A stretch of DNA of 64,000 nucleotides from Escherichia phage wV7. Below are positions 24,363 to 29,787 of the stretch, piece by piece (positions within the stretch are counted from its first letter, which is position 1; each line of letters starts with the position of its first letter). The position numbers and the translations under genes are program-made. Under the pieces are notes generated by a model that was not told the DNA's origin, ran no database searches, and was given only the letters and a program-made list of their open reading frames with translations. The stretch lies in sequence record NC_019505.1. The stretch is one strand, 5' to 3'.

Positions 24363-24652
24363 TCAGTCTCCAATTTAATGTTCATAATTCTAGCGTATGA
24401 TTGTGCCATCTCCGCGCCTCGCTCTATACATTCAAAATCAGAAGAGCACGGGTCATTTTTATAGGTCGTTCTCATAAAACTATAGAATTGTTCAGACGAT
24501 TCTACGCTTTTATTTTCAAAAAGCATATAAACGTGCCTAATACCAGATTCCATAAATTTATCAAAATGAGGATCGACATTCGCTTCAATTGGTGGAGATA
24601 AAGCAAACGCTAATCCTAGCATGGCAAATAGTGCCGTTGCTTTTAAGGCCAT
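24359..24652 (-). CDS. rI: Lysis-inhibition regulator rI
   Basis: 97 aa with signal-anchor N-terminus MALKATALFAMLGLAFALSP; near-identical to recalled T4 RI. Confidence 0.88.
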   Translation of the reverse strand: MALKATALFAMLGLAFALSPPIEANVDPHFDKFMESGIRHVYMLFENKSVESSEQFYSFMRTTYKNDPCSSDFECIERGAEMAQSYARIMNIKLETE

Positions 24653-24664
24653 AAAGGCCTCCTA

Positions 24665-24877
24665 TCATTTTTGTCCTGTATTTACTTTATGCCGATGCAC
24701 GGCCTTAACTTTATCAAGGTATTTTTCAAAATTTCGCAATCTAGTATAGTCTGCCGGAGATTGGTTGAGTGATACTTCTCGACGCAAAGCTGAAATGATA
24801 TTTCCAACTTCCCTACGAATTTCATCTAATTGAAGCACAGTAAGATTGCGAAGTTGCTTTTCAGTTAATTGTAGCAT
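24665..24877 (-). CDS. Hypothetical protein (rI.1 position)
   Basis: 70-aa ORF between tk and rI. Confidence 0.5.
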
Positions 24878-24919
24878 ATATACCCCTTTAGTTAGATAAA
24901 CCTATTTATAACTTTTGCA

Positions 24920-25501
24920 CTAACCGAGCTTTTTAGTTAATTCATTCCAATGTTTTCTACACAAAGAAACATAAATTTCATCACCAATACAGATTTGATT
25001 ACCTTCTTTAACTGGTGTTCCATCTTCCATTAATCGAGCTGTCATAATCGCTTTTTTGCCGCAATGACAAACTGCCTTTAGTTCAATAAGTTTATCTGCA
25101 ATCGCTAAAAGTTCTTTAGAACCTTCAAACAATTTTCCAGCGAAATCAGTCCTTAATCCATAAGCCATAACAGGAACATTATATGTATCAACAATTCGGC
25201 TCAATTGATGCACCTGTTCAGTTTTTAAAAACTGGGCTTCATCTACAAATACGCAATGAATATCTTTTTGTGCTTCAGCCCATTTATAGAACTCGAAAAT
25301 ATCCATATCATCTGTAATAATATTTGCTTCCTGCCTAATTCCAATGCGAGAAACGACTTCACAGACAGAATCGCGAGTATCAATAGCAGGCTTAAGAACT
25401 AATACACTCATTCCACGTTCTTTATAATTGTGCGCAGCAGTCAAAAGAGAAGCAGATTTTCCAGCATTCATTGCTGCATAAGTAAAAATTAAACTCGCCA
25501 T
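24920..25501 (-). CDS. tk: Thymidine kinase
   Basis: 193 aa; P-loop AAMNAGKS and C-terminal Cys cluster; matches recalled T4 tk length. Confidence 0.9.
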   Translation of the reverse strand: MASLIFTYAAMNAGKSASLLTAAHNYKERGMSVLVLKPAIDTRDSVCEVVSRIGIRQEANIITDDMDIFEFYKWAEAQKDIHCVFVDEAQFLKTEQVHQLSRIVDTYNVPVMAYGLRTDFAGKLFEGSKELLAIADKLIELKAVCHCGKKAIMTARLMEDGTPVKEGNQICIGDEIYVSLCRKHWNELTKKLG

Positions 25502-25502
25502 C

Positions 25503-25691
25503 TTAGTCCTTAGTTAAATTTTCTAAATATGTTTCTAAATCATTTTCAGCTTTATCGATAGATTTTACTAATTCGTAATATGTTTCGGCATCTCCATATT
25601 CAGAAGATATTTCAAAAGACAAATCCTTTTCTAAACTAATAATTTCACCAACTAAAAATAATATTTCGTTCTTTTGTTCGCGAGTAATCAT
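25503..25691 (-). CDS. Small acidic protein (small-protein family)
   Basis: 62 aa; N-terminus MITREQKNEILFLVGEI. Confidence 0.45.
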   Translation of the reverse strand: MITREQKNEILFLVGEIISLEKDLSFEISSEYGDAETYYELVKSIDKAENDLETYLENLTKD

Positions 25692-25873
25692 AAGGAATTT
25701 ATATAATCAATGAGTTCTTGTTCTTTATTATCGAATTCTTTAGAAAGTTCTTCGTATTCGTCAGTATTAAAAGGACCGCATTCATTACAAACTTTTTCCA
25801 ATTCACTATTTTTATCCATAACTTCGTGGATAAGAGAAAAGAGTTTGTCTTTTTGTTCTTTGCTTAGGCTCAT
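25688..25873 (-). CDS. Small acidic protein (small-protein family)
   Basis: 61 aa; N-terminus MSLSKEQKDKLFSLIHEV. Confidence 0.45.
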   Translation of the reverse strand: MSLSKEQKDKLFSLIHEVMDKNSELEKVCNECGPFNTDEYEELSKEFDNKEQELIDYINSL

Positions 25874-26043
25874 ATATTAATTTCCAGAAGTTTTAAAATA
25901 ATTCGCTTTTGCTTAAATATTTCCATAGTTAAATGATCAGTATCTTTTTGACCAATTCCAATGGCAAAACCTTTATTAGCAGCGAGTTCAATTAAATTAT
26001 CAAGTTCACGTGACACTTCATATTGTAACTCAGAACTATTCAT
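25872..26043 (-). CDS. Possible small ORF (about 57 aa), below ORF-track threshold
   Basis: Hand translation MNSSELQYEVSRELDNLIEL...; stop overlaps next start (ATGA). Confidence 0.3.
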
Positions 26044-26252
26044 TTCGGTTTACCTTCTTTAACGAAATCTGGATAAGGATAAAATCCCGAATAAAATCCT
26101 TCACCTTTATGATTGATGCATCCTTTATTAGAACAATAGCACCAATAATCGAAATCACAAGCCATTTCATCGTTGCATAAAGCAAAAACAACTGGCCATT
26201 TACACTTTTCACAATGGGCATTTTTAAGAATACTAGTTTGGCTCATAACCAT
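26040..26252 (-). CDS. Cysteine-rich small protein (probable zinc binding)
   Basis: 70 aa with about ten Cys/His (CEKCKW, CNDEMAC, CYCSNKGC); preferred over the overlapping 26036-26221 ORF. Confidence 0.45.
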   Translation of the reverse strand: MVMSQTSILKNAHCEKCKWPVVFALCNDEMACDFDYWCYCSNKGCINHKGEGFYSGFYPYPDFVKEGKPK

Positions 26253-26470
26253 GTAACCTTTAAGCAGTATTCTTCTACATGCTGTTTACGACCTTTCTTA
26301 TCAATAAAGGTATATTCAACGAATGTTCCAATGTAGTCTTTATCTACATCATGTGGACTATTAATTGGACATTTAGTACGGCAAATGCGTTCCCATTGAC
26401 GAATAATTACTGCCTTATTCTTTTGGTCATATGGATGTGGATAATGTATATTCATAATAATGGTTCCCAA
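26243..26470 (-). CDS. Hypothetical small protein
   Basis: 75-aa ORF. Confidence 0.45.
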   Translation of the reverse strand: MGTIIMNIHYPHPYDQKNKAVIIRQWERICRTKCPINSPHDVDKDYIGTFVEYTFIDKKGRKQHVEEYCLKVTWL

Positions 26471-26919
26471 TCAACAATCACAATTTCTAATTTAGAGGAA
26501 TATGTATCTAAAATCCCCTCAATAATATCCCAGTTCCTTTTACCTATGCCTGCACCAATCCTAGGCATATAGATTGTAGGTTTAGTCAGTTTATTTTCAC
26601 CAAACTCATTTAATTCTAACATACAATTCATTAAAGCGGAATACTCAAAATTTGGCCCTGGTTGAAATTGAGTATAAAGATTAAAGCAGTAAGCTTTATG
26701 AGTCCTAAAGTATTTTTCATAGACTGAGTAAGAACCAAGTTTAGTTACATCACCCCATTCAGTCTGTAGTTTATCAGCTTCCAGAATTTTAGGGAAAGCT
26801 TTGGTTAATTGACCTGCGACTCCAGCTTTCATCGTATGAAAACAATTACATCCATGCGCAATATTTTTACCTTCAGTGAAAAGGGCGACAATATCGCCCT
26901 TGATATATTTTACAATCAT
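26452..26919 (-). CDS. Macro-domain-like protein (predicted ADP-ribose binding/processing)
   Basis: 155 aa; KGDIVAL...AHGCNC...KAGVAG and PRIGAGIGK resemble macro-domain N- and C-terminal glycine-rich motifs; motif reading only. Confidence 0.5.
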   Translation of the reverse strand: MIVKYIKGDIVALFTEGKNIAHGCNCFHTMKAGVAGQLTKAFPKILEADKLQTEWGDVTKLGSYSVYEKYFRTHKAYCFNLYTQFQPGPNFEYSALMNCMLELNEFGENKLTKPTIYMPRIGAGIGKRNWDIIEGILDTYSSKLEIVIVDWEPLL

Positions 26920-27263
26920 CTAGTACTCAATCCTCGATTATAAGAATCTACCAAACGGTCAACCATTGAATGACAAGCGGCTTTATCTTTTTCCTCCGCA
27001 ACTGAACATTCTAAGGTATTCCACTTTTTAGCATATCGTTTTAACAATGTATCATTTTTGTATCTGCTTGATTTATCTCTTTCTCCGTCTTTATATGCAT
27101 ATATTAATTTCTGCGCAAATTCAGCTTGACATGCTTTATTTTTCCCACAATAATCCGCGGCAGTACGGTTTACATACTCTCTAATTTCAGTATATGATGT
27201 ATCTGCTAACGCAGAAGCAGAAAATGAAATTAATCCTATACATAAAACCAAAATTTTAGTCAT
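26916..27263 (-). CDS. vs: Secreted protein at the vs position (valyl-tRNA synthetase modifier-like)
   Basis: 115 aa with signal peptide MTKILVLCIGLISFSASALA; positional and size match to T4 vs. Confidence 0.55.
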   Translation of the reverse strand: MTKILVLCIGLISFSASALADTSYTEIREYVNRTAADYCGKNKACQAEFAQKLIYAYKDGERDKSSRYKNDTLLKRYAKKWNTLECSVAEEKDKAACHSMVDRLVDSYNRGLSTR

Positions 27264-27801
27264 TTACTATTTCCAAAAGTTTATTATTTTTAAGGTAATT
27301 AGCCTTTTCTAGGACTTCAGAAGCATATTTAGAACCTGCTTTAACATTCCATCCCGAATTATAAGAGGATATCGCCTTTCTTATATCGCCCTTATGTATA
27401 TTTAACCAATAAGAAAGTTCAATGTACGCCCAGGAAGCTGAATTGGACCGTTTATTCAACATTCTTTTTATTTCAGCATCGGTCATATTATAACCAAGTT
27501 CCTTAACTCTTGCTCGCATAGTAGGCAAATAATTTTGGAACATTCCGTAGGCGTGATGCTTTGGTTTAGATTTTAAATTAACTCCGCCAGAGCTTTCTTG
27601 CCATAAAATAGCAGCCATTATATGACCTAATCCACTCTTGTGGATGTTTTTGTGTGTTTTATATTTTCCATCCTTAGAAAATTGTTCCCCGAATTGATAC
27701 GCGTAACGCATGTTATCGAGTTGGACATTACTGAAAGTATGCTCGGAGCTATGTGCCATCATTGAAATGGCCAATAGACCAGCGAGTAGTGCTTTTCTCA
27801 T
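27256..27801 (-). CDS. Secreted lytic-transglycosylase-like protein (vs.1 position)
   Basis: 181 aa; signal peptide and ILWQESSGG motif resembling SLT-domain catalytic region. Confidence 0.55.
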   Translation of the reverse strand: MRKALLAGLLAISMMAHSSEHTFSNVQLDNMRYAYQFGEQFSKDGKYKTHKNIHKSGLGHIMAAILWQESSGGVNLKSKPKHHAYGMFQNYLPTMRARVKELGYNMTDAEIKRMLNKRSNSASWAYIELSYWLNIHKGDIRKAISSYNSGWNVKAGSKYASEVLEKANYLKNNKLLEIVND

Positions 27802-27808
27802 GCTTACC

Positions 27809-28270
27809 TCATTGAGTTTTAATTACTGCTTTAGAAGCCTTTCCTGGTAAACGACGACTGTTGATAATTGCCATTCTACATTGAAGTGACGGGTCTTTGA
27901 ACTTCGCATTAGGTTTACAAACCGTAAATCCAAGCCAAAGATTTCCATCTGTAATTTCCAAACGCCCAGGACGATATTCAACCCCATCAATAAAATCCTC
28001 GTCAATGTCAGGACGCGGAGGCATACTCAGGAATTCATTAACTTCTAAAACATGGTCTTTTATTTTGTGGAATAATTCAAAAACATATGTCTCATCAATC
28101 TCCCGTTGAATTGCACGATCAAGAAGATGTTGAGAATATTTTAGATGAAACGATGAGACTCCTGCTGCTTTTGATGCCTCACGAATCTCATTGTTAATTT
28201 GACGAAACTCCGACTCAAAATGACGACGAAGCTTATTTCGACGGATAAAAACTTCTGTATTGATAGTCAT
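27809..28270 (-). CDS. regB: Site-specific endoribonuclease RegB
   Basis: 153 aa; matches recalled T4 RegB size and N-terminus; own early promoter with perfect extended -10. Confidence 0.85.
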   Translation of the reverse strand: MTINTEVFIRRNKLRRHFESEFRQINNEIREASKAAGVSSFHLKYSQHLLDRAIQREIDETYVFELFHKIKDHVLEVNEFLSMPPRPDIDEDFIDGVEYRPGRLEITDGNLWLGFTVCKPNAKFKDPSLQCRMAIINSRRLPGKASKAVIKTQ

Positions 28271-28287
28271 GTTGTTCTCCTCTTAAC

Positions 28288-28317
28288 TGATAGAAAAATT
28301 ATACCACAGTCAAGAGG
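28288..28317 (-). promoter_or_regulatory. T4-type early promoter of regB
   Basis: GTTTAC -35 and TGgTATAAT perfect extended -10, 18 nt upstream of regB ATG. Confidence 0.7.
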
Positions 28318-28329
28318 AAAAGTAAACAG

Positions 28330-28650
28330 TTATTCTTTAAATCTAATCAATTTATTCATAGACTTTGAAACTTCTGCACGAACCTCGTGTAGATTTTTAA
28401 GCTGTTCAAGACGTTGCTCATAGTAAGCAATTTCATCTTCTTCGAGGCAGTCCTGTGAATCTTCTTTAAGATAACGTGCATAGTCCTGGAAAGCTTTACG
28501 GACTACTTCCTGGAAATCATCAAGACTTTGAATTTTCTTAGGAGCAACAGATACACGACGAGGGGCAGTATAATACTCATAACCAAACCCTGCGCTTAAT
28601 TGAGCCATTAGTATTTTTCCTCTGGTTGGAACACTGCGCGACAAGCCCAC
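28330..28650 (-). CDS. Hypothetical protein (vs.3 position)
   Basis: 106-aa ORF. Confidence 0.5.
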
Positions 28651-28910
28651 ATACTAGCTTCTTTGAGTTTCGTTTTAGCAATAGTTAACTGATCGAGGCT
28701 TTCAGCATAATTCTTCGCGAGTTCATCATCTTCACAGCTATCGAATGCTTCCCAGAATTCATCGTATAAAGCATCAAAGATAAGTCCTAAACGAACTTCA
28801 GCGTCTTTGATAGCATTCACTTTACCGATTTTCTCTTCAGTATGCGGCTTATAACCTTTAATGTCTTCAATCATATTTGACTTCCTCACCAGTACATAAA
28901 TCATATTCAA
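28608..28910 (-). CDS. Small protein at vs.4 position (possible Acb2-like cyclic-nucleotide sponge); start uncertain
   Basis: About 90-100 aa acidic protein; assignment is positional only (T4 vs.4 is Acb2). Confidence 0.45.
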
Positions 28911-29088
28911 CTAAACGAATAGGTTCATGAATGCCATATCCTTGAACAGAAATTTCTGTCGTAGGATAAATTCCATCAATATCACCCATATTCCAGGCTT
29001 CATTAAATTGCTGTTCGCCTGAATTACTAAACCACTCGGCGAAAGCATTTAGCACATCTTTAGAACCTTCAATAATTATCTTTGCCAT
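28867..29088 (-). CDS. Hypothetical small protein
   Basis: 73-aa ORF. Confidence 0.45.
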   Translation of the reverse strand: MAKIIIEGSKDVLNAFAEWFSNSGEQQFNEAWNMGDIDGIYPTTEISVQGYGIHEPIRLVEYDLCTGEEVKYD

Positions 29089-29450
29089 TACAAACTCTCA
29101 GTAAAGGTACGAGCGATAACGTCGCGCTGCTGTTCCGGAGTCAGAGAGTTAAAGCGAACTGCATAACCGGATACACGGATGGTCAGCTGCGGATATTTTT
29201 CCGGATGCTTAACTGCATCTTCCAGAGTTTCACGACGCAGAACGTTAACGTTCAGGTGTTGACCACCTTCAATTTTAACTGTAGGTTGTGTTTCAATTTC
29301 AATTTCACGGGCATGCAAACCGTAGAAAATTTCTGGGTCTACAAAAGAGTCCTCTTTAAAGGTTTTAGAGACAATAATTCGTGCTTGAATACCATCTTCA
29401 AAATAAATAGTACCTTTATGTGTGCCTTCAAGAATTTGATATGCTTTCAT
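29088..29450 (-). CDS. Autonomous glycyl-radical cofactor, GrcA/YfiD-like
   Basis: 120 aa; C-terminal [59 protein letters not shown] matches the E. coli GrcA C-terminus as I recall it; GC-rich 3' half. Confidence 0.8.
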
Positions 29451-29457
29451 ATAAACC

Positions 29458-29787
29458 TCAATTAGAAAATAAATTTATCCAAGATTGTTCTTTAATTAAA
29501 AATGGCTCAGAATCATATGCCATTAAACTTTGGGTGATTAGTCCTTTAAAAGGTCCATCAATAAATTCCATGGTAAAATATGGAATTTTATTCATTAACT
29601 GCGCGTTAGGAGCAGTGCACAAAACTCTGCATCCTTTGAATACGCCTTTTTGTAATTTGTATTGCTTGGGATAAAATTCGCTCAAAATGTTATTATTTGC
29701 CAAAATTTCAAAATGATTCACCAATTTATTTTTAATAGTTTTTGGCGAAAAATAAAGATATTCGAAAAGCTGTGTGTCTGTCATCAT
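29458..29787 (-). CDS. Hypothetical protein
   Basis: 109-aa ORF. Confidence 0.5.

Follow-up and report, generated by a model that had tools for sequence, protein, structure and literature searches.

Between the thymidine kinase gene tk and the gene vs of Escherichia phage wV7 lies a short open reading frame, and the question it raises is what its product, a small protein with glycine-rich motifs, does for the phage. The original prediction was made from the window, the whole 64,000-nucleotide stretch of record NC_019505.1 that was analyzed. It proposed a macro-domain-like protein that could reverse ADP-ribosylation or degrade defense signals derived from ADP-ribose. The gene is in fact already known: it is annotated as a macrodomain, and its ortholog in phage T4 is the anti-DarTG2 factor AdfM. 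The sections below describe the gene, the class of macrodomain to which its protein belongs, and the way in which it may protect the phage.

The gene and its orthologs

The reading frame is real. The ORF finder places its ATG at 26919 and its stop codon at 26452-26454 on the minus strand, and all four of the motifs on which the prediction was built (KGDIVAL, AHGCNC, KAGVAG, and PRIGAGIGK) occur in the translation. The location between tk and vs is also correct, since the thymidine kinase gene is found at 24920..25501 and vs overlaps the start of the reading frame on its other side (Table 1).

Table 1. Location of tk.4, its immediate neighbors, and the segments of its protein discussed in the text.
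Feature	Position in window	Strand	Remarks
vs (valyl-tRNA synthetase modifier), upstream of tk.4	26916..27263	-	ORF; 99.1% identical to T4 Vs
tk.4 / adfM CDS	26452..26919	-	155-aa stand-alone macrodomain protein; from the ORF listing
HGCN motif, H22-G23-C24-N25	26845..26856	-	Nearly invariant; H22 and N25 align with SCO6735 H24 and N27
Loop 1, M30-K31-A32-G33-V34-A35-G36	26812..26832	-	Consensus M-G-[AS]-G-[IV]-A; K31 codon at 26827..26829
N80-L81-Y82-T83-Q84	26668..26682	-	Q84 at the site of DarG K80, TARG1 K84, and SCO6735 Q85
Loop 2 (phosphate-binding), P119-R-I-G-A-G124-I-G-K-R128-N-W130	26530..26565	-	R128 codon at 26536..26538, AGG
tk.3, downstream of tk.4	26243..26455	-	98.6% identical to T4 Tk.3; phrog_2008

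The packing of tk.4 is tight and head to tail, as is typical of the early and middle gene strings of T4. The TGA of vs overlaps the ATG of tk.4 in an ATGA at 26916-26919, which suggests that the two genes are co-transcribed and translationally coupled, and the TGA of tk.4 overlaps the ATG of tk.3 in the same manner at 26452-26455. A scan for sigma-70-like promoters gave 20 sites compared to 18.9 expected, which is the rate of chance, and no promoter specific to tk.4 is claimed from it. The best minus-strand site, at 28326..28298 (TTTACT-17-TATAAT with an extended TG), is upstream of regB. Together with the ATGA overlaps, this site would fit co-transcription of regB, vs.1, vs, tk.4, and tk.3.

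The tk.4 protein is identical to T4 Tk.4 (NP_049723) at 150 of 155 residues (96.8%, or 97% when rounded) and has the same length. The identity extends over 155/155 positions, the gene keeps its place between tk.3 and vs, and all of the residues that are invariant in the family are shared. The gene order in the T4 reference record is tk, tk.1, tk.2, tk.3, tk.4, vs, vs.1, regB. The window gene and T4 tk.4 are orthologs; the T4 gene has been renamed adfM, for anti-DarT factor macrodomain. The five differences are T15, K31, A32, T112, and R128 in the window and A, G, S, I, and G, respectively, in T4. Identity to T4 in the flanking genes is 98.6-100%, apart from tk.2 at 93.4%.

An observation on the side is that tk.4 (96.8%) and tk.2 (93.4%) resemble their T4 counterparts less closely than the neighboring genes do (vs.1 and tk.1 100%, regB 99.3%, vs 99.1%, tk 99.0%, and tk.3 98.6%). 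This higher divergence weakly suggests faster evolution or an exchange of alleles at these two genes.

Relatives of the gene are numerous. A megablast search with tk.4 matched 646 of 50,697 phage records, among them KP869105 (E. coli O157 typing phage 7), in which the gene is 100% identical at the nucleotide level and is annotated as “macro domain protein.” T6 and many other Tequatrovirus phages are 98-98.7% identical to the window gene, and there it goes by the labels “hypothetical protein,” “phosphatase,” “macro domain containing protein,” and “high-affinity ADP-ribose binding module protein.” With the protein as the query, tblastn found relatives in 2,708 phage records, including phages of Escherichia, Klebsiella, Salmonella, Pseudomonas, Vibrio, Acinetobacter, and Aeromonas. 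The protein also matches PHROG 335 (E = 7.5e-64), a group labeled “phosphatase.” In comparisons with six orthologs, the dN/dS of tk.4 is 0.07-0.16, which means that the gene is under purifying selection. Taken with the PHROG 335 match, the tblastn relatives, and the Pfam Macro match described below, this makes the reading frame much more than a chance ORF.

A stand-alone macrodomain

That the protein would resemble a macro domain was the central claim of the original prediction, and it is borne out at the levels of sequence and of predicted structure. The tk.4 protein scores 24.4 bits on the Pfam Macro profile (PF01661), above the gathering cut-off of 22 bits, with the match spanning positions 2-113 of the 118 in the profile; by sequence, it is a member of the family. 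In phmmer searches against PDB sequences, it matches BT1257, Poa1p, TARG1, and DarG, and a profile of the whole family lifts these four matches to E-values of 3e-19 through 6e-12.

Structure prediction followed by comparison to macro-domain folds had been proposed as a check, and it gives the same answer. An AlphaFold2 model calculated from an alignment of 84 Tk.4-family sequences has a mean pLDDT of 93.9 and a pTM of 0.90. It displays the three-layer alpha/beta/alpha fold with a central mixed sheet and can be superposed on solved macrodomains. Foldseek matched the model to Poa1p, TARG1, BT1257, and DarG in the PDB with a probability of 1.00 and TM scores of 0.72-0.80; Poa1p was the top match. 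The motifs that had been read as glycine-rich loops are the family's two conserved binding loops. On the strength of the Pfam, phmmer and profile, AlphaFold2, and Foldseek results, the protein is placed in the ALC1-like class, and it is an orphan, single-domain macrodomain of that class.

A glutamine in place of the catalytic lysine

Macrodomains differ in the residues with which they act, and the columns of the 84-sequence Tk.4-family alignment indicate which residues matter here (counts for the loop positions come from 121 sequences). Invariant in all 84 sequences are G33, A35, D49, Y82, T83, Q84, P119, I121, and G124, while H22, G23, C24, N25, C26, M30, N80, G88, G122, G128, and W130 are conserved in at least 90%. 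In a profile alignment, the invariant Q84 falls on the catalytic K84 of TARG1, and G126 falls on TARG1 D125. A joint MAFFT alignment pairs the NLYTQ of the tk.4 protein with NFPTK in DarG and MFPTK in gp104, a macrodomain of phage PhiKZ. In other words, a glutamine occupies the site of DarG K80 and TARG1 K84, and the aspartate of TARG1 D125 is missing.

The same arrangement is known from a cellular protein, SCO6735 of Streptomyces coelicolor (PDB 5e3b), which carries Gln85 at the position of the catalytic lysine and is without both catalytic residues of TARG1 (PMC9411070). SCO6735 cleaves thymidine-linked ADP-ribose from DNA and protects Streptomyces against DarT (PMC9411070). All of its activity is lost in the Q85A and Q85E mutants, and activity is likewise lost in mutants of N27 and H24; the phosphate loop requires G128, and the authors propose that N27 locks Gln85 and that water starts the reaction (PMC9411070). 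A second profile, built on divergent family members, aligns H22, N25, Q84, and G124 of the tk.4 protein with H24, N27, Q85, and G128 of SCO6735 (the 5e3b chain is numbered as native plus 20). The histidine and asparagine that lock the glutamine and the glycine of the phosphate loop are thus all present in the phage protein. The two also share a PRIG[AC]G loop, and the profile match has an E-value of 2.2e-14.

The likeness has its limits. SCO6735 is not a phage protein and is inducible by DNA damage, and its DNA-binding residues K34 and K89 are not conserved, being A32 and G88 in the tk.4 protein. Both SCO6735 and BT1257 (PDB 2fg1/2afc, Bacteroides thetaiotaomicron) have an insertion of five to six residues after the glutamine, unlike the tk.4 protein. 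BT1257, the closest solved structure, is of the glutamine type as well. From the Q84, H22, N25, and G124 alignments, the tk.4 protein is placed with SCO6735 and BT1257 in a glutamine-type branch of the ALC1-like macrodomains. As judged by sequence, it is a lysine-less, SCO6735-like macrodomain and not one of the DarG type. Assigning the T4-type AdfM to this branch goes beyond the literature that was found, although the novelty that remains is modest.

The glutamine also bears on the label under which the gene is often filed. One could consider the protein a hydrolase of a small ADP-ribose derivative, either a phosphatase of ADP-ribose-1''-phosphate or a degrader of the Thoeris signal gcADPR, with its effect on DarTG2 being secondary. 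The RefSeq entry for T4 tk.4 reads “phosphatase; contains A1pp phosphatase motif,” PHROG 335 carries the corresponding label, and Poa1p is the top structural match. However, the label derives from the old domain name “A1pp” and rests on no assay, and at the Q84 column Poa1p has a serine, where TARG1 has a lysine. On both of these counts, the Poa1p-like “phosphatase” label is uninformative. The Q, H, N, and G residues are instead shared with SCO6735, which acts on DNA, and the sole experimental phenotype of an ortholog, described below, is specific to DarTG2. A role in small-molecule hydrolysis is very unlikely. A better annotation for the window gene is adfM/tk.4, anti-DarTG2 macrodomain, in place of “phosphatase” or “hypothetical protein.”

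Relation to DarG and to PhiKZ gp104

DarG, the antitoxin of DarT, is the macrodomain with which Tk.4 has been compared, and its identity with the tk.4 protein can be rejected. The protein reaches 23.6 bits on the NCBIfam DarG equivalog (NF048014), for which the cut-off is 250, and its 155 residues cover only positions 2-146 of the 338-position model. Where DarG has the catalytic K80 in an FPTK motif, the tk.4 protein has LYTQ. It also lacks the C-terminal domain by which DarG binds DarT, and its gene lies beside vs and tk.3 rather than beside a darT gene. These features, namely K80, the DarT-binding domain, and the adjacent darT, mark the DarG proteins of Thermus aquaticus (5m31/5m3e) and Mycobacterium tuberculosis (5m3i). 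The score far below the cut-off and the absence of the lysine, the C-terminal domain, and the darT neighbor together exclude membership. The tk.4 protein probably works like the DarG macrodomain, but it falls short of DarG on every defining count.

The second candidate for identity is gp104 of phage PhiKZ. In a 2026 Cell Reports paper, gp104 was independently named “AdfM” and shown to strip DarT2-installed ADP-ribose from a TNTC oligonucleotide in vitro; its active-site asparagine mutant N23A, equivalent to N25 of the tk.4 protein, had reduced activity (PMC13309987). Gp104 resembles the tk.4 protein in being an orphan macrodomain of a phage that acts against DarTG2, and in vitro it was demonstrated to free DNA of ADP-ribose added by DarT2 (PMC13309987). 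It differs in belonging to the DarG-type clade with a lysine-type FPTK motif, whereas the tk.4 protein is of the glutamine type. The gp104 sequence, translated from the published construct, matches M. tuberculosis DarG with a phmmer E-value of 9.4e-25 and has an FPTK·NWR motif. On the PADLOC DarG model it scores 132.9 bits, compared to 26.6 bits for the tk.4 protein, and BLASTP aligns the two phage proteins over 23 residues only (E = 0.016). The BLASTP, phmmer, and PADLOC results lead to the rejection of orthology, and in particular the short alignment and the gap in the DarG scores indicate that the two proteins called AdfM are not orthologous. This non-orthology of the T4-type and the DarG-type PhiKZ proteins likewise goes beyond the literature found. 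Since the T4-type AdfM is of the glutamine type and is not orthologous to that of PhiKZ, phages have recruited two macrodomain branches against the same toxin.

A point of nomenclature arises from this, as the name AdfM now stands for both T4 Tk.4 (bioRxiv 10.1101/2025.11.20.689424) and PhiKZ gp104 (Cell Rep 2026, PMC13309987).

Probable protection against DarTG2

The role in counter-defense that was predicted for the protein has experimental backing from its T4 ortholog, which is 97% identical and has been shown by genetics, in a preprint, to protect against DarTG2. Earlier work had found that T4 without adfA and adfN is still resistant to DarTG2 (PMC11825919), which predicted a further factor; the finding on tk.4 resolved this. 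Both adfN (gp30.3) and adfA are separate genes outside the tk.4 locus. In the HIDEN-SEQ preprint of November 2025, tk.4 was the single significant hit when a T4 transposon library was grown on a DarTG2 host (bioRxiv 10.1101/2025.11.20.689424). Infection of DarTG hosts, one of the experiments proposed with the prediction, has thus been done by others for T4 tk.4: a clean knockout sensitized T4 to DarTG2, which is genetic evidence from a preprint (bioRxiv 10.1101/2025.11.20.689424). The same authors noted the similarity of Tk.4 to the DarG macrodomain, gave it the name adfM, and wrote that it “seems likely” that the protein takes ADP-ribose off DNA enzymatically (bioRxiv 10.1101/2025.11.20.689424).

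The preferred explanation is that the window gene encodes an orthologous macrodomain enzyme that removes DarT2-attached ADP-ribose from thymidines in single-stranded DNA by the glutamine-type mechanism, and this is probably correct. By analogy with its characterized relatives, hydrolysis of thymidine-ADP-ribose is most likely the reaction, and the same analogy suggests that the mechanism described for Gln85 would apply to Q84. In such a scheme, the protein would be expressed from the regB-vs.1-vs-tk.4 string in the course of infection. DarT2 would ADP-ribosylate thymidines in single-stranded phage DNA, and the tk.4 protein would take the ADP-ribose off again, allowing phage replication to continue in hosts that carry DarTG2. 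The two glycine-rich loops would hold the diphosphate of ADP-ribose while H22 and N25 position Q84. The glutamine, in turn, would orient the substrate or the transition state so that an activated water can attack it, a chemistry distinct from the lysine-based one of DarG and TARG1. Several points count against this explanation. The support from T4 is of a genetic kind and was reported in a preprint, the allele of the window departs from T4 at two conserved loop glycines, K34 and K89 of SCO6735 are not conserved, and the protein is only distantly related to gp104, the phage enzyme with proven biochemistry.

Protection could also come about in a different way, with the tk.4 protein acting as an antitoxin mimic that neutralizes DarT2 mainly by binding it and not by hydrolyzing ADP-ribose from DNA. 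In favor of this, the Q85A mutant of SCO6735, which has no catalytic activity, is a stronger inhibitor of DarT in vitro than DarG K80A or TARG1 K84A (PMC9411070), and the phage anti-DarT factors AdfA and AdfB bind the toxin (PMC11825919). However, H22, N25, G33, A35, Q84, and G124 are invariant or nearly so in 84 diverse members, while the DarT homologs of their hosts differ. This constancy of the active-site constellation fits a conserved chemistry better than it fits an interface specific to one toxin. At 155 residues, the protein is also without the C-terminal domain by which DarG binds DarT. Neutralization mainly by toxin binding is accordingly quite unlikely.

The ADP-ribosyltransferases of T4-like phages suggest another substrate, and the tk.4 protein might reverse the ADP-ribosylation of protein or RNA, either tuning the marks set by the phage enzymes Alt, ModA, and ModB or erasing marks imposed by the host. 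T4 Alt, ModA, and ModB modify arginine, and this linkage is cleaved by enzymes of the ARH/DraG type and not by macrodomains. In addition, no ART gene is adjacent to tk.4, and the phenotype in the genetic screen is specific to DarTG2. In favor of this alternative, TARG1 and SCO6735, the closest characterized relatives, also de-modify Glu/Asp-linked proteins (PMC9411070), and a 2026 paper describes both as reversing uracil ADP-ribosylation in RNA (PMC13036486). Such a role is highly improbable. Removal of ADP-ribose from phage DNA, if it is the function, has a practical side: the tk.4 family is widespread and would be a determinant of how well therapeutic and model phages grow on strains that carry DarTG2.

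Variation in the binding loops

Of the residues that line the macrodomain loops, N25, G33, A35, G122, and G124 are present in the tk.4 protein. The first glycine of loop 1 is replaced by K31 and the glycine at 128 by arginine, and both positions vary in the family. The two changes have different histories. Column 31 holds glycine in 104 and lysine in 6 of the 121 sequences, with A, N, D, E, R, or F elsewhere, and it is glycine in every outgroup macrodomain aligned. Lysine is common to a T6-like cluster (P0001, with 122 member sequences) and to loci L003-L005. Compared to T4, K31 requires three substitutions (GGT to AAA), which indicates that it is old and fixed. A reading of K31 as a striking loss of the GxG glycine was dropped, as it is a common allele of the T6 lineage at a variable position. 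R128, on the other hand, is a single change from T4 (GGG to AGG), and among the 646 megablast-matched phage records, KP869105, with its 100%-identical gene, is the only one to share it with the window. Glycine is present at column 128 in 111/121 sequences, and leucine is seen in several family members as well as in DarG and TARG1.

These substitutions raise the concern that the protein of the window phage works less well or with an altered specificity. Most of the family has glycine at both positions, R128 is nearly private, and the Pfam Macro score declines from 27.7 bits for T4 Tk.4 to 25.0 for the K31/G128 allele and 24.4 for the window, so that the two changes together cost about 3 bits. 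The loop segment with R128 (residues 121-130) is modeled with less confidence (pLDDT 76) than any other internal part. However, K31 is fixed in the large P0001 lineage under a dN/dS of about 0.1, position 31 tolerates six other residues, position 128 tolerates leucine in family members and is leucine in DarG and TARG1, and the tk.4 ORF is intact. An impaired or altered allele is extremely doubtful. Loss of function appears unlikely from these comparisons, and the K31/R128 allele of the window phage is predicted to keep the function of its T4 counterpart.

A bolder reading combines the active site with the loops. In it, the Tk.4 clade would provide the first example of a phage counter-defense enzyme with the lysine-less glutamine/water mechanism, so far described for SCO6735 only, and the T6-lineage K31 and near-private R128 would retune the loops to another substrate or another context of the DarT2 product, such as RNA-borne uracil-ADP-ribose or another sequence motif. 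On this view, K31 would do the work of the loop lysine that stands one position later in DarG, SCO6735, and BT1257 (G-K-G in those proteins, K-A-G here). This combination is rather unlikely to hold in full. The natural alleles that differ at the binding-loop glycines can be compared experimentally.

Other features of the region

Between tk.2 and tk.3, the window has two minus-strand ORFs, 25870..26043 and 26040..26246, with no counterpart in the tk-tk.4 interval of T4. One encodes 57 amino acids (phrog_3452) and the other 68 (phrog_2306); the 68-residue product is rich in cysteine and zinc-finger-like (CEKC...C...C.C..KGC). Both are annotated as hypothetical proteins in KP869105.

Terminator-like hairpins are also more frequent in the interval 24500..29500 than expected, with six found against 2.1 +/- 1.6. 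All six are on the plus strand, antisense to every gene there. One of them, at 26881..26901, has an 8-bp stem followed by a T-run and lies inside the 5' end of tk.4, and the record of vB_EcoM_DalCa has a “terminator” annotated under its tk.4 match.

Annotation of the neighboring genes calls for some care as well. In KP869105.1 (74145-80612, locus L001), six neighboring genes, among them the orthologs of vs.1, regB, vs.3, and vs.7, are all labeled “endoribonuclease RegB,” which is evidently annotation spill-over. The true regB in the window is the reading frame at 27809..28270 only, which is 99.3% identical to T4 RegB.
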